A program made the position numbers and the translations under genes. A stretch of DNA of 64,000 nucleotides from Bacteroidota bacterium. GTDB lineage: Bacteria > Bacteroidota > Bacteroidia > Chitinophagales > LD1. Under the pieces are notes generated by a model. The model made no database searches. It was not told where the DNA came from and was given only the letters and a program-made list of their open reading frames with translations. The DNA lies in NCBI GenBank assembly GCA_018267365.1, contig JAFDYQ010000009.1, positions 64,863 to 128,862 of the forward strand, in the 5' to 3' direction. Shown in pieces: positions 4,282-43,224 of the stretch (within the stretch, counting starts at the first letter, position 1; every line of letters starts with the position of its first letter).

Positions 4282-6180
4282 TTAAAGGAAGTACTTCTTG
4301 TACCAGTATTGGAAAACGATCAGGCCCCAGATGCGTGCATGCACCTCGCCGGGATCAGAGGAGAAGAGCTGCTTTTTCAGCAGACGTATCTCGGTAGCGT
4401 CAAATATCCCCTGCTGCTCGATGAAGCTATCACTCAGCAGGTCATCCTCTATCAGCGACCGCAGCCCCGTGCGAAACCATTTCAGCAGTGGTACCTCAAA
4501 GCCGCGCTTGGGACGCGTGTAGAGCTCATCGGGCAGCACATCACGGAATGCATCCTTAAGTATCTTCTTTGTGTGGCCGCCGGCTATTTTAAACTTTGTC
4601 GGGATAGTAAAAGCATAATTGACCACCGTGTAGTCCAGTATCGGGACGCGTACCTCCAGGCTATTGGCCATGCTCATGAGGTCTACCTTGGTGAGCATAT
4701 CATTGGGTAGGACCATCTGTGTATCGGCCATCAGCACATCATTGATAGAGTCCTTGCCATTCACATATTTCAGAACAGCTTCTTTGCGCTGGTCTATATC
4801 TGCTTTATTGATGCTATGATTGGCCCGGATCAGCCGCTGTGCATCATCCTGGTCTACAAAGGCGCACCACCTCCAGTAGCGCTCCTGTGGTGAAAGTTTT
4901 AATCCCACACCATAGCGCTCCAGCTGCCGGAAGATATTGGTGAACTTCGACTGCCGCGACTTAGGCAGCATCTTCCATACAGGCAGTCCGGCCTTTACAG
5001 CCGTATTCACCAGGTTCTTCTTTCGGGCGCGCAGCTCCGCATCATGCTTATTATAGCCGGCAAACAGCTCATCTCCACCATCTCCGGAGAGCGACACGGT
5101 GACATGCTTGCGGGTATGCATACTCAGGATGTATACCGCGATAGCCGAAGAGTCCGCAAACGGTTCGTCTAAATAGTCGAGGATATCAAACAAGTGCTGA
5201 TACATATCCTCTGTAGTAATGCTAAAGACCGTATGATTGGTGCCAAACTTCTTTGCCACCAGATTAGCATAATACGTCTCATCAAAGAACGGTTCATCTT
5301 TGAATCCTATGGAGAAAGTATTGAGGTCTGGCTTGTGCCGTGCCGCGAGGGAGACGACGATAGAGGAGTCTATACCACCACTGAGGAAAGCTCCCAGCGG
5401 CACATCTGACACCAGCCTGCGCTGTACAGAGGCATCGAGCAGGGTGCGTAGTTCGCTCTGCGCCCTATCGTAGGAGGCTGGTGTATCCGCGATCAGGTTT
5501 CTGTCATCGTAGGGCACTTTATAGTACTGCGCTTTGCCTTGGTGACCAGTCCGGTCTATGGTCATATACCAACCCGGCAGCAGGCGCGATACATGCTTTA
5601 GAATTGAATTTGAACCGGGGATATAGTTTAGCTGTAGGTAGAGCGCCAGCGAGTCAAAGTCTATCTCCTTGCTGATGGGAAAGGCAAAGATAGCCTTCAG
5701 CTCCGAGGCAAAAATGATCTTGCCGTTATCCTCATACACATGCAGTGGTTTGATACCCATCCTGTCTCGGGCTATAAAGAGGCTCTGCTCCACACTGTCA
5801 TAAACCGCAAAGGCAAAGAAGCCATTCAGGTGCTGCAGGCAGTCCTCGCCGAGTTTGATATAGAGATCCAGGAGGACCTCCGTGTCTGAGGAGGAGTGAA
5901 ATTTCTGATCACCCAGAAACTGCGCACGCAACTCACGATAGTTAAATATCTCTCCATTAAAGATAATAGTATACCGCCCCGTCTCATCCGTCATCGGCTG
6001 GGTGGCGCAGTCGGTCGTATCTATGATAGACAAACGTGCATGGCCAAAACCCACATGCGGCGAAAGAATACGTGACACCTGCGTATCCGGCCCGCGCAGC
6101 GATAGCGCCTGCAACGCTTTATCCAGATGCGCCTTATGATCTGCTTCCGCTTTTGAAAAATAACCTACGATGCCGCACAT
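4282..6180 (-). CDS. asnB: asparagine synthase (glutamine-hydrolysing)
   Basis: N-terminal MCGIVGY (Cys2 class-II amidotransferase nucleophile) and SGGIDSS PP-loop motif; 632 aa. Confidence 0.9.
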   Translation of the reverse strand: MCGIVGYFSKAEADHKAHLDKALQALSLRGPDTQVSRILSPHVGFGHARLSIIDTTDCATQPMTDETGRYTIIFNGEIFNYRELRAQFLGDQKFHSSSDTEVLLDLYIKLGEDCLQHLNGFFAFAVYDSVEQSLFIARDRMGIKPLHVYEDNGKIIFASELKAIFAFPISKEIDFDSLALYLQLNYIPGSNSILKHVSRLLPGWYMTIDRTGHQGKAQYYKVPYDDRNLIADTPASYDRAQSELRTLLDASVQRRLVSDVPLGAFLSGGIDSSIVVSLAARHKPDLNTFSIGFKDEPFFDETYYANLVAKKFGTNHTVFSITTEDMYQHLFDILDYLDEPFADSSAIAVYILSMHTRKHVTVSLSGDGGDELFAGYNKHDAELRARKKNLVNTAVKAGLPVWKMLPKSRQSKFTNIFRQLERYGVGLKLSPQERYWRWCAFVDQDDAQRLIRANHSINKADIDQRKEAVLKYVNGKDSINDVLMADTQMVLPNDMLTKVDLMSMANSLEVRVPILDYTVVNYAFTIPTKFKIAGGHTKKILKDAFRDVLPDELYTRPKRGFEVPLLKWFRTGLRSLIEDDLLSDSFIEQQGIFDATEIRLLKKQLFSSDPGEVHARIWGLIVFQYWYKKYFL

Positions 6181-6191
6181 GGACGGAAAAT

Positions 6192-6240
6192 AGTAATTAG
6201 TAGTAAGTAATCAGTAGTTAGTATTAAGTATTTAGACAAC
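6192..6240 (-). repeat. seven phased 7-nt units (AGTAATT AGTAGTA AGTAATC AGTAGTT AGTATTA AGTATTT AGACAAC on the + strand) in the asnB leader
   Basis: Read directly from the sequence. The last five units match the 35-nt module at 16566..16600 and 43135..43169. The array ends 11 nt from the asnB ATG. Confidence 0.8.
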
Positions 6241-6249
6241 AGCCGTATC

Positions 6250-7674
6250 TCAGACTTTCAGCAGGTGTGGTCGTTCTTTATGCACCTTGACGATCAGCTC
6301 GCCAAAGAGCGTATTGGCCCAGGCGAACCACTTCCGCGTATACAGTTTCGGATTATTGGCGCTAAAGCCCTCATGCATGAAGCCTGTGCCGGCGTGCGTT
6401 GCCTTGATCATGCTGAGGCAAGAGGCTATCTCGGTATCATCCTCGCTGGTCAGAGCGCGTGCTATCAGGCTGAGGTGCCAGACGTAGCCTTTGGGCGTGT
6501 GGTCGCTACCTACGCCTGTGGCATATTTGCCTGTGACAAAGTACGGGTTGCTATCGCTAAGGATGAACTGGCGGGTGTGCTGATACGTCTCATCCGTCCG
6601 ATCCACTGCATCGAAGTAGGGCAGGCTGAGCAGATTGGGCAAGTTGGGCTCGTCTATTACGAGTTGGTGGCCGAGGGCGTCTGTCTCATAGGCATATATC
6701 GCACCATACCTAGGATGCTGATGTACTCCATATTCCTTTAGGGCCTTTTCTACCTCGTCTGCCAGCTCTGTGCTCTCTTTGGCTAAGGCTGACTCATGGA
6801 TCGCTGTAGCTATTTTAGAAAGCTGCCGCAGGGAAATGACTGCAAAGAAATTGGACGGGATCAGAAAGGGATACGTGGTCGCATCATCTGAGGGGCGAAA
6901 CATGGAGCAGATCAGGCCCACAGGCTTCACAGACTCTCCGTAGCCATCATGAGTCAGGGTGTCCTTATTAGCCAGTATACCACGCTGGAAATGATACGGC
7001 CCATGATCTGTCTTGCGCTGCTGCTCTTTGAATGTTTTGACCACTAGCTTCATCGCTGCTACCCAGTCTTTGTCGAAGACAGAAATATCAGTGGTCACCT
7101 CAAAATACCTGTGTGCCAGCCGGATTACATAGCACAGCGAATCCACCTCCCACTTGCGCTCGTGCAGGTCCATCTTCATATCGGTCTTATCGCCATACCA
7201 TTCACTCTTCTTTTTGTTATCGTAGTTGAATGCATTGGCATAAGGATCTATGAGTACGGACCGCGCATGCCGGTTGATCACACCCTGCACGAGTTTTTTC
7301 AACGCAGGATCATCATTGACGTATTGCACGTAGGGATAGACCTGTGCCGAGGAGTCGCGCAGCCACATGGCATCTATATCTCCGGTGATGACAAAGGTAT
7401 CTGCCTTGCCATCCACCTCGCCGTGATGTGTGATGGTCGTATCCAGCGTATTGGGAAAGCAGTTTTCAAAGAGCCAGGCCAGCTCGGGATCTGCTATGTC
7501 AGCTTTCACCCGCACGATCTCCGACTCAATGGCCGGGCTGGTAAATTTCCGCTGCGCCATAGCCGGCCTGCGGGTTTCGTAGTTTGCACCTTTCGCAAAA
7601 AGAGAAGCCGGGCTGACTGCTAGTCCCCCGGCTACTAATGATGTATGGATGATAAAGCTTCTTCTGTCCAGCAT
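6250..7674 (-). CDS. glycoside hydrolase family 125 (exo-alpha-1,6-mannosidase-like, DUF1237)
   Basis: ORF 6250..7704. DAMWLRDSSAQV motif is typical of GH125. The Met at 7674 is followed by a DRRSFI twin-arginine-like signal; an alternative start lies at 7704. Confidence 0.75.
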   Translation of the reverse strand: MLDRRSFIIHTSLVAGGLAVSPASLFAKGANYETRRPAMAQRKFTSPAIESEIVRVKADIADPELAWLFENCFPNTLDTTITHHGEVDGKADTFVITGDIDAMWLRDSSAQVYPYVQYVNDDPALKKLVQGVINRHARSVLIDPYANAFNYDNKKKSEWYGDKTDMKMDLHERKWEVDSLCYVIRLAHRYFEVTTDISVFDKDWVAAMKLVVKTFKEQQRKTDHGPYHFQRGILANKDTLTHDGYGESVKPVGLICSMFRPSDDATTYPFLIPSNFFAVISLRQLSKIATAIHESALAKESTELADEVEKALKEYGVHQHPRYGAIYAYETDALGHQLVIDEPNLPNLLSLPYFDAVDRTDETYQHTRQFILSDSNPYFVTGKYATGVGSDHTPKGYVWHLSLIARALTSEDDTEIASCLSMIKATHAGTGFMHEGFSANNPKLYTRKWFAWANTLFGELIVKVHKERPHLLKV

Positions 7675-7723
7675 AACCGATATTACTATTCCCAACTTAT
7701 GCAATCAGCATGAATCCATAGAT

Positions 7724-10700
7724 TTATTCTTCGCGTCCGTGACAGTTCTTAAACTTCTTGCCGCTGCCGCATGGACATGGATCATTACGTCCTATCTTCT
7801 CACCTACACGCACCGGCTCTTGCTTGCGCACCGGCTCAGCGTGCTGTGGCTGACCATGCGGCATGTGACCCTGCGCATGCTGTGGGGCATTGAGCGCGGC
7901 GTCATTGCGGCTCTCCTTCATCTTGCGAAAGTCTGTCTGCTCCTGCTCGGCGGCGCGCACCTGCTGTGGCTCAGCTACCGGTATCATACCCTTGAAAAGG
8001 AAAGATGCGATCTCTTTATTGATATTGCTGATGAGGCCCTTGAAGAGGTTAAACGACTCGATCTTATAGATCACCAGTGGATCTTTCTGCTCATAGCCTG
8101 CCGTCTGAACCTCCTGCTTCAGGTCATCCATCTGGCGCAGGTGGTCCTTCCACGCGTCATCTATCAGCGCGAGTGACACACCTTTTTCAAAATACGTCAT
8201 CAGGTCACGGCCTTCGCTTTTCACGATATGCTCCAGCGGCACGTAGATATTGATGCCACGGCGGGTATCTGTGAATGGTATGGCCACGCTGCTGATCTGC
8301 TCGCCACGCTCCATATAGAGACCCGTGAGTACCGGCAGTGCATTGGACAGGATGAAGTGCTTTTTGCGTTCATAGGCTTCCATTACTTCATGGAATAGCT
8401 TCTCTGTCAGTGCCTCAGCGCGACCTGCAGCAAACTCCTCAGCCGTGATAGCAGTATCTACCGAGAAGAAGCGGATCACCTCCAGCTTGAACCCTTCATA
8501 GTCCTTGGTGTCAAGACCGGTAGTGACGAGCTCATCTGCCAGATCGTAGAAAGAGTTTTGTATATCGAGAGCCAGACGCTCTCCGAATAGTGCATGCTTA
8601 CGCTTGGTGTATACTACCTGGCGCTGCTTATTCATCACATCATCGTACTCCAGCAGGCGCTTACGGATGCCAAAGTTGTTTTCTTCTACCTTCTTCTGTG
8701 CGCGCTCGATAGACTTGGTGATCATGCTGTGCTGTATCACCTCGCCCTCCTCGTAGCCAAAGCGATCCATAACCTTGGAGATACGCTCAGAGCCGAAGAG
8801 GCGCATGAGCTCGTCCTCCAGTGATACATAAAACTGTGATGAACCCGGGTCACCCTGGCGGCCTGCACGGCCACGCAGCTGGCGGTCTACACGGCGGGAG
8901 TCGTGGCGCTCAGAGCCTATGATAGCGAGGCCACCTGCGGCCTTGGCCTGATCGTCCAGCTTGATATCCGTACCACGGCCTGCCATATTGGTAGCGATGG
9001 TCACGCTGCCTGCATGTCCTGCCTCTGCTACGATCTCTGCCTCACGCTGGTGTTGCTTGGCATTGAGTACATTGTGCTTGATCTTGCGCATAGTGAGCAT
9101 ACGGCCCAGGAGCTCAGACACCTCTACATTGGTAGTACCGACCAGTACAGGGCGGCCCTCTGAGGTCAGCTTGGTGATCTCATCTATGATAGCGTTAAAT
9201 TTCTCCTTGCGCGTCTTGTATACCAAATCCTCGCGATCGTCACGTGCTATGGGGCGATTGGTAGGGATGCTGGATACCTCCAGCTTGTAGATATCCCATA
9301 GCTCCTGTGCCTCTGTCTCGGCAGTGCCGGTCATACCACAGAGCTTGTGATACATACGGAAGTAGTTTTGCAGGGTGATGGTAGCCATCGTTTGTGAGGC
9401 AGCTTCTACCTTCACATTTTCCTTGGCCTCTATAGCCTGGTGCAGGCCATCAGAGTAGCGGCGGCCCTCCATGATACGCCCGGTGTTTTCATCTACGATC
9501 TTCACCTTGCCATCTATCACTACATACTCTACATCTTTATCAAAGAGTGTATAAGCCTTTAGCAACTGTGACACGGAGTGGATGCGTTCGCTCTTGATAG
9601 CAAAGTCCTGCATCAGGGCGTCCTTCTGCTGGAGCTTTTCCTCCGGTGTCAGGCTTGACTTCTCCAGGTCTGCTATCACGCTGCCCACCTCCGGTATCAC
9701 AAAGAAATGCGGGTCCTCACCGGCACCTGTGATCAGCTCGATACCTTTATCAGTCAGGTCTACGCTGTTGTTCTTTTCATCTATGGTAAAGTACAGCTCC
9801 TTGTCCACGATCGGCATATTGCGCTGCTGCTCGCCCAGGTAGTGGTTCTCTGTCTCGCGCATGATCTGTGTCACGCCCGGTTCACTGAGAAACTTGATCA
9901 ATGCCGTATTTTTGGGATAGCCTCGCTGCGCGCGGAAGAGTGCGAGGCCACCTTCTCCCTCCTTGTATCCCGTATTGCCTTCCTTGATCAGGCGCTTGGC
10001 ATCAGTCAGGAAGTTATTGCACACGCGCTTCTGTGTCTCTACCAGCTTATTGATGCGCGGCTTCAGTTCGTAAAATTCCTTTTCGTCAGAGCTATCTATC
10101 TGGCCGGAGATAATGAGTGGCGTACGGGCATCATCTACCAGTACGGAGTCCACCTCATCTACCATGGCAAAGTGGTGCTTGCGCTGTACCAGCTCGTCAG
10201 GATTGCGCACCATATTGTCACGCAGGTAGTCAAAGCCAAATTCGTTATTGGTACCGTAGGTGATATCTGCGCGGTAGGCATTGATACGGCCATCGGAGTG
10301 CGGCTCATATTGGTCTATACAGTCTACGCGGATGCCGAGGAAGTTGAACAGCGGGCCATTCCACTCAGAGTCACGGCGTGCCAGGTAGTCATTGACCGTC
10401 ACGATGTGTACGCCCTCGCCGGCCAGTGCATTGAGGTAGGCTGGCAGGGTAGCCACGAGGGTTTTGCCCTCACCGGTGGCCATCTCTGCTATTTTGCCCT
10501 GATGCAGTACGATACCGCCTATGAGCTGCACATCGTAGTGCACCATATTCCACTTGACCGGCACCCCGGCAGCGAGCCATTCATTTTTGTAGTAGACCTT
10601 ATCGCCCTCTATCTCTATAGCCTTATTGGTCACAGCCAGATCGCGGTCCAGCTGGGTAGCGGTAGCCTCTACACGAGGATTATTGGTAAAGCGGTAGGCA

Positions 10701-11351: not shown

Positions 11352-12213
11352 CTACGGCAGGCTTTTGATACCGTCTATAGCTGACCGGAGATCAAACCTG
11401 CCACCGACCAGCCGGCGAATGATAAAGTAATGGGAGGCATAATCCTCCATGCGGAGGAAGTAGGCATTATTGACCGGATAGTTCATCCTGTCTTTCTGAA
11501 ACTGGTTGCCACCGGCAGTGATTCGGATTAGTGTGGCGGTGCACCTGACGTAGATCCTTTCTTTGGCTTTGGGCGGCTGGCGGTCTAGCAAGTGCCGCTG
11601 CCGGTTCATAAAGACATATGCCCTTTCAAAAATATCCCGCTGCCTGATGGCTGCCGCCGTGTCCAGCAGATGTGTCTGCCGGGCAAATCGCACACATGCA
11701 TAATTGGCCACCACATCAGCAAAAGACTCTTCAAAGCGGTAGGCGATAGGATGGCCGAGGTTCACCATATTGCGGTGTATGGCCTCATGAAATACAATAA
11801 AGGCGATGGCCTCATCAGGATAGGAGAGCAGTTTGGGGTTGAGCAGGGCGCTGGACATGCCAGCCGTTTTGTACACCAGCGTGTGATAGCCGCGTGTAGT
11901 CAGGCCTGCGGCGGTAGCATGGGCCAGAGCCTCGGAAGGGCAGTAGGCTGGGATGTGCAGCGAGGTGTCACGCGCTACATGATCGCCATAGGATATATAG
12001 AAAGGCGTACAGGCTGTCCTGCCGCTCCTCCTGCCAGTCCGTATAAAAGTCTGAAGGGACATAAAGCTGAAGGTCTAAGGCTATAAAGGCGCGCAGCGAA
12101 TCCAGTAGCCACAGCTGATGACTATACCGCTCCTCCCGCATAGTATGCTGCGCTATACAGCACCTGCCAGCTACCAGCAGGACAAGAAGAAAGTATGTGT
12201 GCTTAGCTTTCAT
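11352..12213 (-). pseudogene. HExxH putative aminopeptidase split by a frameshift (or sequencing error)
   Basis: ORF 11968..12213 carries the signal peptide (MKAKHTYFLLVLLVAGRCCIAQ). ORF 11352..12062, one frame over, carries the body with FHEAIH. The two overlap by 95 nt around a TATATAT tract near 12000. Confidence 0.55.
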
Positions 12214-15800: not shown

Positions 15801-16560
15801 CATACGGGCGCATATCCTTCGCACCCAATGCACAATTGAGGCCCACAGAGAAGAGGTTCGCATGCTTCACCGACACCCAGAATGCCTCCGTGGTCTGCCC
15901 GCTCAGTGTGCGTCCGCTCTGGTCTGTGATGGTCCCGGAGACAGACACTGGCAGGTTAGTACCCTTTTCTTTTTGCACTTGCTGTATGGCAAATAGAGCC
16001 GCCTTGCAGTTCAGCGTATCAAACACGGTCTCTACCAGCAGCCAGTCTGCACCACCATCTATCAGCCCATGCGCCTGCTCTGAGTATGCCTTTACCAACT
16101 CATCAAAGGTGATAGCGCGGTAGCCCGGATTATTCACATCAGGAGAGATAGACGCCGTACGATTGGTCGGGCCAAAAGCACCCGCCACAAAGCGCGGCTT
16201 ATCAGGATTCTCACGGTTAAATTCCTCTGCTACCTCCTTCGCAATCTTGGCCGACTCATAGTTGAGCTGATAGGCCAGGTGCTCCAGATGATAGTCTGCC
16301 TGCGCGATAGTAGTAGAGGAGAAGGTATTGGTCTCCACGATATCCGCGCCTGCGGCAAAGTACTGGCGGTGTATCTCCTTGATCACTTCGGGCTTTGTGA
16401 TAGAGAGGAGGTCATTATTGCCTTTCAGGTCATGCTTGTGGTCTTTCAATATCTCTCCGCGGAAATCTTCTTCCGTCAGTTTGTAGCGCTGTATCATGGT
16501 GCCCATAGCGCCATCGAGTACGAGTATCTTTTCTTCTGCGAGCTGTGCGAGTGTCTTCAT
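12865..16560 (-). CDS. metH: cobalamin-dependent methionine synthase
   Basis: ORF 12865..16611; likely start is ATG 16560 ([21 protein letters not shown]). Hcy-binding GGCCGTTP, B12 motif [10 protein letters not shown] (DxHxxG), and the C-terminal AdoMet reactivation domain. Confidence 0.95.
13488..13506. repeat. perfect GC-rich palindrome CCCTCTCC-AAA-GGAGAGGG inside the metH coding sequence
   Basis: 8-bp arms with a 3-nt loop, read directly. Translated in frame as part of [13 protein letters not shown]. Confidence 0.8.
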
Positions 16561-16565
16561 TGCAT

Positions 16566-16600
16566 AGTATTTAGTAGTTAGTATTAAGTATTTAGATAAA
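16566..16600 (-). repeat. 35-nt heptad module (AGTATTT AGTAGTT AGTATTA AGTATTT AGATAAA on the + strand) 5 nt upstream of the metH ATG
   Basis: Read directly. The mRNA-sense string TTTATCTAAATACTTAATACTAACTACTAAATACT contains no G. Near-identical copies lie at 6206..6240 and 43135..43169. Confidence 0.85.
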
Positions 16601-16671
16601 TACCAATACACAATGCCTTAAGCAATAGATTATCAAGAATAGTGGGGATACGATACGGAGTATACGTTTTG

Positions 16672-16802
16672 TTATCTATCTACCGGTAGATACCGATAGC
16701 AGGATTTAGCACCTTCATCTGTCTGCGTAGCCGTTTGGCTTGATAGCAGACAAGGGTTGCTAAGACATCAGCGGGCCTGTCCCTCCGTCTTTCTTGATAA
16801 TC
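16672..16802 (-). promoter_or_regulatory. SAM-I (S-box) riboswitch aptamer in the metH leader
   Basis: Minus-strand RNA reads GAUUAUCAAGAAAGACGGAGGGACAGGCCCGCUGAUGUCUUAGCAACCC...GGUGCUAAAUCCUGC...AGAUAGAUAA. This matches the conserved SAM-I cores (AUCAAGAG-GG-GGAGGGAC-GGCCCGAUGA, AGCAACC, GGUGCUAAAUCC, closing P1 AGAUAA). Confidence 0.9.
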
Positions 16803-16822
16803 ATACTGGTAAAGAGCGGCTG

Positions 16823-16853
16823 CAAATATAGGGCGAAATGGCTAATGTGCAAA
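16823..16853 (-). promoter_or_regulatory. Bacteroidota-type promoter TTTG-N19-TATATTTG driving the riboswitch-metH transcript
   Basis: On the minus strand the -7 box TATATTTG is at 16830..16823 and the -33 TTTG at 16853..16850, with a 19-nt spacer. The -7 box lies about 20 nt upstream of riboswitch P1. Confidence 0.6.
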
Positions 16854-16862
16854 TATAACTAT

Positions 16863-20526: not shown

Positions 20527-23500
20527 ATGAAGAAACAACTATTCTCCCTGCTCACATGCACAGGCCTGGCGCTATGCTCTCTGGCTCAGACGACAGTGCC
20601 CAATGGTGAGTATGAAAACTGGCAGAATGTAGGCCAATCTACCGAAGAACCTACCAACTGGAACTCCAATAAGACTGGTGGTGGATTCGCTACCAGCGGC
20701 CCCCAGACGTGCTTTCGCGATACCAGCACACTCAATGGCGGCTCCTACTGTATGAAGATCAAGACCGGATCATACTTCGGGATCGTGGTCAATGGCTCAG
20801 GCTCTACCGGTAAAATAGAAGCTCCGTCTACCAGCAAGTCTGAAGGCTATATCCATACTATAGCAGGGGACCCTAATTACTCTTCAACCTTCATCGGACG
20901 GCCGGATAGTATCGCCTTCTGGTATCGCTATACCAAGGCCGGTAGCGACTATCCTAAAATCGAGACCCGTCTGCATGTAGGCAATGCCTATGCTCCCGAG
21001 GCTCCCGTAAATGGCAATCACCCTGACAGTACCGTCAATATTATAGCACGCGCCCTCTGGAATGGTCCGGCCAACTCGGTAGCCAACTGGACGAGGATAT
21101 CTGTTCCCTTCAACTATGTAGATGGGCGCACGCCACGGTACATACTGGTCACTATGACCAGCACGGGAGACCAGACAGGTGGCACATCCGGCTCTACACT
21201 TTGGGTAGATGGTATGACCGCTATCTACAATCCGACCCTCACTACATCCACTACTATTGCTACGGGGCCATATTATGTATCATCATCTCAGGGTGCTACG
21301 ATCTCTGTACCTTTTACCATGACAGGTACATTCTCTGCCGGCAATACGGTGACAGCACAGCTATCTGACGCCAGTGGCTCTTTTGCCAGCCCGGTGACCA
21401 TCGGCTCTGCTACAGCTACTGCATCTGGTACTATCACTGCCACCATACCTGCTGGCACAGCTACCGGCACAGGCTACCGGGTACGTGTAGTGTCCAGCTC
21501 TCCGTCTATCACCGCAGCCAATAACGGCAGCAACATCACCATCTACCTCGCAGGAAACAGCATAGCACCATCCAGCGCGCAGACTATCGCAGCCAATACC
21601 AATGGCACCCCACTCATCGTGACAGAGACACCGGCTGCTACCTCCCGCGAGTGGAAGTATGCCACCATATCCGGCGGCCCATACAGCAGCTTCAGTACGC
21701 CCCCGACAGGCATTACCTATACACCAAACTTTGCCACAGCAGGCACCTACTATGTGGTATGTATCTCTACCTACCCGGGCAGCCTTAGTACCACCAGCGC
21801 AGAGGTGGTGGTCAATGTAGTAAGCAACGAGATCACGCCGTCTACCTCACAGAGCCTCCTGATAGGCGTATCCGGCAATAGCCTCACGGTGACAGAAGCA
21901 CCAGCCGCTACTTCGCGCGAGTGGAAATATGCTACTACTGCCGGTGGGCCTTACAGCAGTTTTAGTACCGTGCAGACAGGCACTTCTTATACGCCGGTAT
22001 TCAATACATCCGGCACCTACTATATAGTATGCCAGTCTGTGATCAGCGGTGTGACCGCTACGAGCAATGAGGTGATCATATCAGTAGGCAATGCCACTAT
22101 CTCTACCTCCGCCGTGAGTGGTTCGCCATTCCTCTTCAGCCCGCATGCTCCGGACGCATCTGTGAGTGTCCCATATACCACAAGCGGTACTTTCAATAAT
22201 GGCAATGTCTTCACAGCCCAGCTATCAGATGCTTCAGGCTCCTTTGCGACACCTACTAGTATAGGTACACGTACAGCTACTACTGCGGGTACTATCTCTG
22301 CTTCGATCCCGCATACTACACCCGCGGGTTCTGCCTACCGTATCCGAGTAGTATCATCTAACCCCGCTATACTCGGCAGCGACAATGGAACCGACCTGAC
22401 CGTAGACCAGTTTCACAACTCTGTTTCTCCCACCTCCAGCCAGACTATGCAGATCAACACTGCCGGCACCGCGATGACTGTCACAGCCTCTCAGTCCAGC
22501 ACACAAGTATGGGAGTACAGCACGACAAGTGGTTCGGGTTATTCTATGTTTACGCCTGATCAGACAGGTAGCAGTTATACGCCACAATTTGCCATACCGG
22601 GCACTTATTATGTCGTATCAAAGTCCATCAATCAATACAATGATACAGTGACCAGCGGCGAAGTGATGATCACTGCTACTAATGGTACTACGCTGACCAC
22701 GTCTGTAGTAGCCGGATCGCCTTTCCTGATTTCACCCAAGGCACAGGTCATGGTGACTGTAAACTATACCTCCGATGCCGTATTCAATGCCGGCAATACT
22801 TTCACTGCGCAGCTCTCTGATGCCACCGGTAGCTTTGCCAATGCCGTAAACATAGGTCAGGTAGCGAGCACCACTCCTGCTGCCATCTCTGCCCAGATAC
22901 CAAACTCATCTCTGGCTGGCACCGGCTACCGCATCCGCGTAGTATCTACTGATCCGGTGCTGACCGGTACTGACAATGGCACCGACCTGCAGATTGTACC
23001 ATTTGAAGTATCCTTATCCTCGCTGGCACCGCAGCATGTGTATACACACTATGACGGTACGCCGATCAGCATTGCAGAGACACATCCTGCTACGCGTGAG
23101 TGGGCGTACAATTTTAACGGCTCACAAAACTATATTTCGTTTAGTCCCCAAGATACAAGTAGCGTGTATACACCTCACTTTGATCAGGCCGGCACATACT
23201 ATGTAGAGTGTACATCCGTAAACGGGTGGAACGACAGTATCCGTACTGTGGCTATTGTGATCACCGTGACCGACTCTGTCAATATAGGTATACATGACCT
23301 GGCCTCTGCAGATGCGCGCCTGTACTATGCGGGTGGCCGCCTGGTAGTAGATATGGCCCGCTCACAGCTGACGGCTACCAGCATAGAGCTGATAGCTATG
23401 ACTGGCCAGACCATACTCACCGCAGCGGTACGCAGCAGAGAGGTCACCAGCATACCGGCAGATCTGCCGGAGGGTATTTACATATTCCGACTCGCTACAG

Positions 23501-23535
23501 ACCGCGGCCTGATATCAGGCAAAATAGTGAAGTAA
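20527..23535 (+). CDS. large modular secreted protein with a T9SS C-terminal sorting domain (adhesin/glycan-binding-like)
   Basis: Signal peptide, then an N-terminal PCMD-like domain (GEYENWQN...EPTNWNS...LWVDGM). Three A modules (FTAQLSDAxGSF...YRIRVVS) alternate with four B modules (TSREWKYAT..GGPYSSFS...GTYYVVC). C-terminal tail LPEGIYIFRLATDRGLISGKIVK. Confidence 0.8.
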   Translation: MKKQLFSLLTCTGLALCSLAQTTVPNGEYENWQNVGQSTEEPTNWNSNKTGGGFATSGPQTCFRDTSTLNGGSYCMKIKTGSYFGIVVNGSGSTGKIEAPSTSKSEGYIHTIAGDPNYSSTFIGRPDSIAFWYRYTKAGSDYPKIETRLHVGNAYAPEAPVNGNHPDSTVNIIARALWNGPANSVANWTRISVPFNYVDGRTPRYILVTMTSTGDQTGGTSGSTLWVDGMTAIYNPTLTTSTTIATGPYYVSSSQGATISVPFTMTGTFSAGNTVTAQLSDASGSFASPVTIGSATATASGTITATIPAGTATGTGYRVRVVSSSPSITAANNGSNITIYLAGNSIAPSSAQTIAANTNGTPLIVTETPAATSREWKYATISGGPYSSFSTPPTGITYTPNFATAGTYYVVCISTYPGSLSTTSAEVVVNVVSNEITPSTSQSLLIGVSGNSLTVTEAPAATSREWKYATTAGGPYSSFSTVQTGTSYTPVFNTSGTYYIVCQSVISGVTATSNEVIISVGNATISTSAVSGSPFLFSPHAPDASVSVPYTTSGTFNNGNVFTAQLSDASGSFATPTSIGTRTATTAGTISASIPHTTPAGSAYRIRVVSSNPAILGSDNGTDLTVDQFHNSVSPTSSQTMQINTAGTAMTVTASQSSTQVWEYSTTSGSGYSMFTPDQTGSSYTPQFAIPGTYYVVSKSINQYNDTVTSGEVMITATNGTTLTTSVVAGSPFLISPKAQVMVTVNYTSDAVFNAGNTFTAQLSDATGSFANAVNIGQVASTTPAAISAQIPNSSLAGTGYRIRVVSTDPVLTGTDNGTDLQIVPFEVSLSSLAPQHVYTHYDGTPISIAETHPATREWAYNFNGSQNYISFSPQDTSSVYTPHFDQAGTYYVECTSVNGWNDSIRTVAIVITVTDSVNIGIHDLASADARLYYAGGRLVVDMARSQLTATSIELIAMTGQTILTAAVRSREVTSIPADLPEGIYIFRLATDRGLISGKIVK
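21238..23271 (+). repeat. intragenic tandem module repeats (order A-B-B-A-B-A-B, about 270-320 nt each)
   Basis: Approximate module boundaries from the protein. A modules: 21238-21546, 22090-22410, 22681-22998. B modules: 21547-21822, 21823-22086, 22411-22680, 23001-23271. B1 and B2 are clearly alignable by eye at the DNA level. Confidence 0.75.
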
Positions 23536-43090: not shown

Positions 43091-43169
43091 AGTATTGAGT
43101 AGTGCGTATTGCGTATTGAGATAATACAACTACCGGTATTTAGTAGTTAGTATTCAGTATTTAGATAAT
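43091..43169 (-). repeat. two tandem 35-nt heptad modules separated by 9 nt, 6 nt upstream of the dehydratase ATG
   Basis: On the + strand, 43091..43125 reads AGTATTG AGTAGTG CGTATTG CGTATTG AGATAAT. 43135..43169 reads GGTATTT AGTAGTT AGTATTC AGTATTT AGATAAT. Confidence 0.8.
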
Positions 43170-43211
43170 ACAGGCTACAAATCACGTGCCTCGCGTGTAT
43201 TGGTATTAAAG

Positions 43212-43224
43212 TCCCCTTTGGGGA
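43212..43224. repeat. short GC hairpin TCCCC-TTT-GGGGA with a G-rich flank, just downstream of metF
   Basis: Read directly. The flank TTTAGGGGCTGAGGGTTGGGAGAGGT shares GGGAGAGGT with the flank of the metH palindrome. Confidence 0.45.

Follow-up and report, generated by a model that had tools for sequence, protein, structure and literature searches.

We analysed a 64,000-nucleotide (nt) stretch of a Bacteroidota bacterium genome (GenBank assembly GCA_018267365.1, contig JAFDYQ010000009.1, positions 64,863 to 128,862; hereafter 'the window') in which a module of phased 7-nt units, or heptads, precedes three minus-strand genes: asnB, metH and a pterin dehydratase gene. The window copies belong to a widespread heptad-repeat family that is found mostly in Bacteroidota-type DNA poor in Shine-Dalgarno (SD) sequences. 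They are best explained as single, sense-oriented arms that form the last 30–50 nt either of a 5′ leader or of an intercistronic spacer. Tentatively, and with rather less than even confidence, we propose that the module may be a cis-acting RNA leader element for SD-independent translation initiation, with a putative protein reader.

A heptad-repeat module precedes three genes of the window

The 27-nt core AGTAGTTAGTATTNAGTATTTAGANAA occurs with 0 mismatches at 6213–6239, 16573–16599 and 43142–43168 in a scan of the window, whereas 100 dinucleotide-preserving shuffles of the window contained no match (0 expected). At all three loci the core lies on the mRNA strand of the minus-strand gene. A more generic heptad pattern, (AGTANTN)x4+AG, for which 0 matches are expected, matches 6192–6235 as six phased units at asnB and 16566–16595 at metH. 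At the pterin dehydratase gene it matches 43135–43164 with one mismatch and 43091–43120 with two. No further TACT-N3-TACT pairs were found beyond these loci on either strand of the 64 kb. The four 35-nt blocks carry 0, 3, 2 and 1 C residues on the plus strand, which correspond to G in mRNA sense. These scans bear out the sequences and coordinates given in a preliminary description of the modules, together with its claims of a 27-nt core shared by three loci and of 0–3 G per copy in mRNA sense. The module boundary that it placed at 6206 at asnB needs correction, as the array runs on to 6192.

Pfam matches identify the genes as asnB (Asn_synthase and GATase), a five-domain MetH and a pterin dehydratase (Pterin_4a), with ATG codons at 6180–6178, 16560–16558 and 43084–43082, respectively. 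The gap between array and ATG is 11 nt at asnB, 5 nt at metH and 6 nt for the proximal pterin dehydratase copy. An earlier statement that every copy ends 5–11 nt from the ATG thus holds for these proximal ends and fails for the distal pterin dehydratase copy (50 nt). Upstream of the arrays lie a GH125 mannosidase gene (asnB), a SAM riboswitch (metH) and an MTHFR gene (pterin dehydratase).

The commonest form of the module, in mRNA sense, is TCT-AAATACT-NAATACT-AACTACT-NAATACY, with N-A-N-T-A-C-T as the unit. Within each heptad, the A at position 2 and the TACT at positions 4–7 are fixed, and positions 1 and 3 vary. A conserved 5′ flank, TGTATT(T)A, stands before the TCT at metH and at both pterin dehydratase copies.

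The module belongs to a widespread family

A metagenome scan with a 23-nt core containing one N identified at least 120 loci (L numbers below are our handles for loci outside the window). De-duplication gave about 120 distinct flanking contexts among the matches listed, almost all of them in SD-poor contigs. In many such contigs the core recurs in sense orientation just 5′ of starts. Carrier contigs range in GC content from 0.25 to 0.60 and have an SD-like motif before only 4–12% of genes, which marks them as Bacteroidota-type; their taxonomy is judged from SD poverty only. In the window, an SD-like motif lies upstream of 1 of 46 long open reading frames (ORFs). Contigs picked for one copy usually contain further diverged copies close by, and counts of diverged copies are lower bounds because an nhmmer profile missed the degenerate proximal pterin dehydratase copy.

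We also scanned genomes for generic NANTACT arrays. The matches listed are mostly homogeneous repeats and come from named Bacteroidota, many Cyanobacteria, Chloroflexota, Acidobacteriota, the candidate phyla radiation (CPR) and others. Complete Bacteroidota genomes with such arrays include those of Terrimonas ferruginea DSM 30193, Cytophaga aurantiaca DSM 3654, Salinimicrobium and Patiriisocius sp. Uisw_017. Among these genome matches, the exact module occurs in one contig of a metagenome-assembled genome (L116). In the viral collection IMG/VR, the exact core was found in two contigs only (L244 and L245). Heptad arrays lie directly 5′ of the phage terminase large-subunit gene (Pfam Terminase_3/6) in L139 (116–200, 11 units) and L140 (860–900), suggesting that phage or prophage genes use the same heptad leader.

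Genes downstream of the module encode proteins as different as thiolase, acyl-CoA dehydrogenase, HisIE, riboflavin synthase, IspF, ThrRS, PurL, MreC, enoyl-CoA hydratase and phage terminase. In two contigs (L213 and L243), the module stands ahead of each of several beta-oxidation genes. Given this diversity we reject an amino-acid or one-carbon regulon, and the common metabolic theme that had been noted for asnB, metH and pterin dehydratase is coincidental. A promoter cassette was likewise rejected. Of the Bacteroidota sigma-A promoter (−33 TTTG, −7 TAnnTTTG), the −7 box TAnnTTTG is scattered at no fixed distance in 108 upstream regions, the module itself is G-free and the TTTGTATT flank seen in about eight copies is also present within operons, right after a stop codon.

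Searches of reference collections recovered little. At gathering score, Rfam matches in the window were limited to RF00162, and permissive Rfam scans of one window locus and of the L197 hairpin (see below) yielded only sub-threshold chance or generic-hairpin matches. A literature search by sequence string returned human mitochondrial primers only.

Arrays point at genes from both sides

We called arrays of at least three units de novo and tested both ends symmetrically, with ORF contexts taken from heuristic stop-to-stop calls. The head is defined as the 3′ end in the G-free sense and the tail as the 5′ end. A sense start codon lies within 40 nt of the head, mostly at 0–15 nt, in 62 of 153 arrays, and the stop codon of a convergent gene lies −12 to +40 nt from the head in 53. 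The corresponding features are rarer at the tail, with an antisense start in 13/153 arrays and a sense stop in 19/153 (head versus tail: starts, p=8e-9; stops, p=8e-5). Genes are thus approached by array heads at either end, with G-free RNA before starts and (UAG-N4)n RNA right after stops. The antisense (UAG-N4)n arrays often supply the stop codon itself. The constant orientation relative to the gene that had been noted earlier for the window copies is thus no rule of the family, in which about one-third of arrays are antisense at the stop codons of convergent genes.

Generic arrays follow the same polarity, both in named Bacteroidota and in other phyla such as Cyanobacteria. The search pattern biases the exact-core set; 44 core-free arrays and the named-genome set give the same polarity. 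Four-unit exact-core copies whose variable position is T or C favour starts over stops (15 versus 5), with 13 unclassified, several of which also precede starts as judged by eye. This position is T or C at asnB and metH and G at the pterin dehydratase copy. A-variant copies and long arrays have mixed contexts. At some other loci the array makes up the whole spacer, with the upstream stop 3–19 nt before it and the ATG 0–11 nt after it.

One simple account of this positioning was rejected and another set aside. Placement of the start codon in heptad register is ruled out by the distance between array and start (0–15 nt, mode 3–6), which is too broad. A Rho utilization (rut) site was set aside as the unifying cause of polarity. 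The arrays do have more C than G and an unstructured tract, but the tract is short (28–45 nt, versus about 70–80 nt) and its C residues stand in AC rather than YC context.

Some modules have no ORF downstream. At five orthologous loci (L129, L170, L177, L214 and L224) and at L159/L182, the module leads directly into a terminator-like hairpin, beyond which lies a tRNA gene on the opposite strand. Judged by this arrangement, module and hairpin together could form a small transcript that carries the module.

Inverted pairs form predicted stop-to-start hairpins

A complementary partner within 200 nt (duplex ≤ −15 kcal/mol) lies on the tail side of 48 of 121 arrays and on the head side of 8 (p=5e-8). 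The hairpins predicted for paired arrays are AU-rich, at least 20–30 bp long and −30 to −60 kcal/mol in energy. Their 5′ foot coincides with the stop that ends the upstream gene, and their 3′ foot lies a few nt before the next ATG. We identified such stop-to-start hairpins between atpD and atpC in L197 (24 perfect pairs), twice in L150, and in L137, L235, L243, L141, L134 and L181. A related arrangement occurs in L211, where a 799-aa gene has oppositely oriented arrays at its stop and start (9061–9089 and 11519–11547); the 5′ and 3′ untranslated regions (UTRs) of its mRNA would be complementary.

These pairs raise the possibility that the functional unit is not the array but an intergenic inverted-repeat hairpin of the REP, BIME or Correia kind, with an AGTA arm after the stop and a TACT arm before the start. 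The RNA hairpin would then serve RNase III processing, 3′-end protection or translational coupling, and the window copies would be solo or remnant arms. The excess of tail-side partners, the predicted hairpin energies and the gene flanked at both ends in L211 are all consistent with this explanation. So is the conserved TGTATT flank, which is complementary to AATAC units and at the window loci has the look of a partner arm reduced to one unit. However, a real partner arm is missing at all three window loci (best duplex −8.8 to −9.7 kcal/mol), although these rank with the most strongly conserved copies. Near-identical heptad arrays in opposite orientations will always be complementary, and their pairing may simply follow from the head-to-gene rule; the loops are often 50–130 nt long. 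Finally, a single module is not palindromic and, being G-free, does not pair with itself; hairpins need two arrays, in contrast to the self-hairpins of REP and BIME elements. We consider an inverted-repeat unit unlikely, although it deserves real weight.

Orthologous leader copies appear strongly conserved by selection

We compared orthologous leaders with the 4-fold degenerate sites of the adjacent genes. Between the window and L208, the metH module is identical at 40/41 positions, with the sole change at the N position, at a 4-fold identity of 0.34 (p=5e-18); the part of the leader between aptamer and module has random-level identity. The acyl-CoA dehydrogenase leader is identical at 36/36 module positions between L161 and L213 (4-fold identity 0.52, p=6e-11), with flanks that are unalignable. 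The asnB leader is identical at 54/55 positions between the window and L227 (4-fold identity 0.38, p=7e-22). This stretch takes in locus-specific units and the locus-specific spacer AUUUUCCGUCC, whose conservation means that conversion from other copies is no explanation. At thiolase, acyl-CoA dehydrogenase and atpC, an array recurs at a matching position across three to five lineages. Compared in this way, the leader copies are evidently under strong purifying selection.

Other arrays change in length by whole units. L126 and L135 differ by 10 versus 15 units, and the proximal pterin dehydratase array has one additional heptad (TACTCAA, +7 nt; L121 2970–3000) in the near-identical strain L121 that is absent from the window, L122 and L123. 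Exact-protein look-ups of asnB and metH for strain variants found none on record.

Copy-number steps of this kind between close strains are what a slippage repeat would show, and the arrays could be neutral or selfish heptanucleotide repeats that are tolerated in certain intergenic positions, that is, long simple sequence repeats (LSSRs), or the short tandemly repeated repetitive (STRR) sequences of cyanobacteria. The generic pattern, which among the matches listed occurs in many phyla mostly as homogeneous arrays, fits this view. Heptanucleotides are also given as the commonest class of long simple sequence repeat in prokaryotes (Mrazek 2007, summarised in PMC4679880). Slippage repeats should nevertheless consist of homogeneous units that drift freely. 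The module instead keeps a fixed order of four non-identical units in about 120 contexts among the matches listed, which independent slippage cannot produce. Orthologous copies are 98–100% identical at saturated synonymous sites, including the locus-specific asnB sequence, and they obey strong rules of orientation and position. Ortholog conservation largely refutes a slippage origin for the four-unit leader copies, and for the family we think it distinctly unlikely. Polarity, stop-to-start hairpins and purifying selection in at least one form all argue against heptad arrays as mere slippage debris.

The metH module is transcribed behind a SAM-I riboswitch

The metH leader module (16566–16596, minus strand) consists of TCT and four heptads, which in the mRNA read UCUAAAUACU UAAUACU AACUACU AAAUACU. 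It is G-free and ends 5 nt before the AUG. A SAM-I riboswitch aptamer (RF00162, 75 bits, E 9e-16) lies upstream at 16669–16803 on the same strand. The module is situated between the aptamer and the ATG and is therefore inside the transcript. Two TATATTTG boxes, which match TAnnTTTG, the −7 motif of Bacteroidota, are located 5′ of the riboswitch on the minus strand (16823–16830 and 16850–16857), and the proximal one is kept in L208, a second species. The module is not part of the riboswitch, as it is present at asnB, at pterin dehydratase and at dozens of aptamer-free genes.

The riboswitch itself has no obvious terminator. A 12-nt anti-P1 segment, UUCUUGAUAAUC (16628–16639), lies upstream of the heptad module and pairs perfectly with the 5′ strand of P1 (16791–16802). 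In the minimum free energy fold, CAUUGUGUA (16607–16615) is paired with the start region UAUGCAAUG, and most of the heptad module is a loop; in L208, CUUCA is able to pair with UGAAG at that gene's own start. This folding model suggests that the metH SAM-I riboswitch is a translational OFF switch. A two-codon upstream ORF, AUGCAAUGA (AUG-CAA-UGA, 16557–16565, minus strand), lies between the module and metH. Its UGA overlaps the metH AUG (AUGA overlap, 16560–16558), and it is without counterpart in the L208 orthologue.

The module is preceded by the conserved 5′ flank GUAUUUA (16597–16603, minus strand), which is complementary to AAAUAC units and may be a remnant of an inverted arm. The flank forms a dyad, GTATTTA-TC-TAAATAC, at 16588–16603. 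The arrays might be site arrays for a double-strand DNA-binding protein, a transcription factor or nucleoid protein that acts on the neighbouring gene boundary, with this dyad as one possible site. The same 7+2+7 dyad stands at the 5′ end of the L208/L238 copies, and units 1 and 4 are spaced 21 bp apart, equal to two helical turns. An oriented DNA complex could also explain why arrays occur in both orientations to transcription with a fixed polarity to the nearest gene boundary. With a 7-bp register, however, neighbouring sites do not share a face of the helix. The promoter box keeps no fixed distance, and many copies are found inside operons or behind a riboswitch, positions at which a role in transcription initiation is unlikely. 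The strand-specific choice of G-free sequence at starts and C-free sequence at stops points to RNA. We therefore regard a DNA site array as very unlikely and favour an element that acts in the RNA.

A possible role in Shine-Dalgarno-independent initiation

Initiation in Bacteroidota does not use the SD sequence; low structure and upstream A residues tune it, and AUG is depleted near starts (PMC6847099). Ribosomal protein bS1 is suspected to make contact at about −12 to −15 (PMC6847099). In such bacteria, the heptad tract would be a ribosome landing region that acts in cis on the RNA. A G-free tract contains no AUG, GUG, UUG or GGAGG/SD-like sequence and does not fold on itself, and it would leave the stretch between about −45 and the AUG single-stranded. 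In 47 genes that have a sense array ≤20 nt from the ATG, the predicted unpaired probability from −20 to +12 is 0.62 for the native sequence. It falls to 0.43 when the array is reverse-complemented (p=2e-11) and to 0.49 when random DNA from the same contig takes its place (p=9e-9). The difference between the native and reverse-complemented arrays would explain the orientation preference before starts.

Openness alone would need no 98–100% identity. The nearly invariant A (position 2) and TACT (positions 4–7), combined with free positions 1 and 3, suggest reading in a 7-nt register, and a binding factor with this register is plausible on the pattern of conservation. Such a factor would be a single-strand RNA-binding protein; bS1, with its four RNA-binding OB folds, and a cold-shock-domain protein are candidates. 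Cold-shock-domain and S1-type OB folds each accommodate about one heptamer (PMC4679880), and CspB is described as binding one protein per heptamer in a reviewing passage of the same paper (PMC4679880). In the approximately 40% of the family with an inverted second array after the upstream stop (none in the window), the two arms would form a 20–30 bp AU-rich hairpin. This hairpin would mask the landing region and might thereby provide translational coupling, insulation or RNase III processing.

The least probable of the alternatives, in our judgement, is a trans-acting RNA network in which AGUA arrays in 3′ UTRs, or module-terminator small transcripts, pair with UACU leaders for co-regulation or co-degradation: both polarities do occur in the same contigs with 20–28 nt of complementarity, modules with a terminator-like hairpin and no ORF exist (L129, L170, L177, L214, L224 and L159/L182) and nucleotide-level conservation is compatible with base pairing, but the tolerance that recurs in every heptad (positions 1 and 3) is more in keeping with reading by a protein and the 64-kb window holds no array of antisense polarity.

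The preliminary description had raised an unstructured initiation leader as one option. Transcription at metH, the start-proximal sense copies, selection and predicted openness support that idea, which is incomplete in that it does not account for the antisense third of the arrays or for the inverted pairs (about 40%). Several points weigh against our own proposal of a leader element for initiation. First, 53/153 arrays lie antisense and have their head on or within a convergent gene's stop codon, and a pure 5′-leader role does not explain them. Second, the same head-to-gene polarity recurs in generic NANTACT arrays of other phyla, Cyanobacteria among them, and the pattern may in part be a general property of such repeats rather than a Bacteroidota translation device. 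Third, the distance between array and ATG varies from 0 to 15 nt, and the favourable A positions are not in register. Fourth, an unstructured state alone does not call for conservation at 40 of 41 nt, and S1 is generally seen as low in sequence specificity (PMC4679880). Heptad copy number also differs between close strains, the ORF contexts are heuristic and both collection scans give lower bounds. Finally, an effect on translation, like a protein partner or a role for the hairpin, is something that we infer from position, polarity, transcription at metH, conservation and predicted openness. It is mainly the stop-codon class and the cross-phylum polarity, both left unexplained, that keep our confidence below even.

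A more far-reaching version of the proposal strikes us as quite unlikely. In it, the G-free four-heptad module would stand in for the SD sequence as a sequence-specific, widely conserved site of ribosome recruitment in SD-lacking bacteria of the Bacteroidota type. Its reader, in 7-nt register, would be bS1 with its four RNA-binding OB folds or a stack of cold-shock-domain proteins. The mirror copies at stops would be switches that link the expression of many housekeeping genes, either as hairpins opened by the terminating ribosome (translational coupling) or through trans pairing between 3′ UTR and leader.

The asnB and pterin dehydratase loci

The asnB leader array (6192–6237, minus strand) comprises TCT and the six units AAAUACU UAAUACU AACUACU GAUUACU UACUACU AAUUACU and is conserved in L227. 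The spacer AUUUUCCGUCC (6181–6191, minus strand) runs from the array to the asnB AUG and is identical in L227, with synonymous sites saturated. The GH125 gene and asnB lie on the same strand, and the array takes up most of the 69 nt that separate them; it would be transcribed only as part of an mRNA common to both genes. The GH125 alpha-mannosidase and asnB (4282–7704, minus strand) are unrelated genes, and their pairing is kept in L227 at saturated synonymous divergence.

The distal pterin dehydratase module with its flank (43135–43172, minus strand) reads UGUAUUA-UCU-AAAUACU GAAUACU AACUACU AAAUACC; one base varies and the rest is invariant in L121–L123. The proximal, degenerate module (43091–43128, minus strand) reads UGUAUUA-UCU-CAAUACG CAAUACG CACUACU CAAUACU and lies 6 nt before the AUG. 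Flank, four heptads and a spacer of about 10 nt together make up a higher-order tandem repeat of about 44 nt. Two copies are present at pterin dehydratase (43091–43172, minus strand), two in L243 (7290–7400) and at least four in L181 (9520–9680). A hairpin, UCCCC-AAA-GGGGA, followed by CUUUAAU (43212–43224, minus strand), lies about 25 nt past the MTHFR stop. Judging by its sequence, this hairpin may act as a weak terminator that separates metF from the leader of pterin dehydratase.

The window also contains direct repeats of a different kind. At 21330–22856 on the plus strand, repeats of 75–149 nt with 61–73% identity lie inside a 1002-aa ORF (20527–23535), which suggests a protein with repeated domains.

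Relation to known elements

The preliminary description recognised no described element in the module. Heptamer repeats upstream of start codons have in fact been reported already (PMC4679880; bioRxiv 10.1101/2022.06.06.494920). The closest precedent is the TAACTGA repeats of Beggiatoaceae, which are the same kind of element but a different family. These heptamer direct repeats occur in marine Beggiatoaceae, some Cyanobacteria and five Bacteroidetes (MacGregor 2015, PMC4679880); Flexibacter litoralis is a named carrier. Among 170 sets, 147 are forward and a few nt from a start, ending about 1 nt before it (PMC4679880). They replace the SD sequence ahead of unrelated genes, and S1 and Csp proteins were proposed as their readers (PMC4679880). 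In Nostoc, heptamer repeats lie near start codons, some next to or overlapping them, and reportedly affected reporter output in one preprint (bioRxiv 10.1101/2022.06.06.494920).

Like TAACTGA sets, which have 2–6 units that are sometimes broken by related heptamers, the arrays described here are tandem 7-nt direct repeats, with 4–6 phased units in a single register at each window locus. Both are intergenic, forward and near a start without an SD sequence (5, 6 and 11 nt in the window; 62/153 arrays in the family), and both show 7-nt indels between close strains. The unit, however, is NANTACT (AAATACT, TAATACT, AACTACT) rather than TAACTGA, and the family has a fixed four-unit order of non-identical units across many SD-poor contigs. 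The antisense stop-codon class accounts for about 35% of arrays here and 12/170 there. Inverted pairs are frequent here, whereas one inverted repeat was reported for TAACTGA, and purifying selection is demonstrated here.

Cyanobacterial STRR heptanucleotide repeats were reportedly described by Mazel in 1990. STRRs and LSSRs resemble the present arrays in being intergenic heptanucleotide tandem arrays of variable copy number, some of them at start codons. NANTACT itself is abundant in cyanobacterial genomes, with the same polarity among the matches listed. STRRs and LSSRs are mostly homogeneous and long, in contrast to the short, fixed, heterogeneous window element that is conserved between species.

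Comparable features are found in other leaders and repeats. The TMV omega leader and A/U-rich S1-binding leaders are G-poor and unstructured, lie directly 5′ of the AUG and have been proven by experiment to act independently of an SD sequence. The heptad module shares with them a G-free tract with short direct repeats just 5′ of the AUG; those leaders, unlike the heptad family, are single viral or gene-specific cases and have no 7-nt register, genome-wide dispersal or antisense stop-codon class. REP/BIME, ERIC and Correia repeats are short, dispersed and co-transcribed, often after stops, and their RNA hairpins affect mRNA stability or RNase III processing. Heptad arrays likewise occur singly or as inverted pairs, but the module is non-palindromic, built of internal heptads, AU-rich and tightly linked to starts. 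We know of no mobilising enzyme for it. HutP, a Bacillus-type antiterminator, binds (UAG-N4)3 RNA as a hexamer. The antisense polarity of the arrays reads (UAG-N4)n, a comparable 7-nt register of triplets, whereas the window copies have the opposite polarity on the mRNA.

Implications

What is new here is a fixed, heterogeneous four-unit module that is widespread in SD-poor DNA, together with demonstrated purifying selection, head-to-gene polarity and stop-to-start hairpins. The module could be a portable expression element for engineering Bacteroidota, and the family is relevant to the heptanucleotide repeats of bacteria, a puzzle now decades old. Current answers to how Bacteroidota ribosomes find start codons without a Shine-Dalgarno sequence are statistical, invoking low structure and, at a few positions, adenines. 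A discrete 30-nt cassette at the ribosome loading site, conserved nucleotide for nucleotide at saturated synonymous divergence, provides a concrete experimental object for this question.

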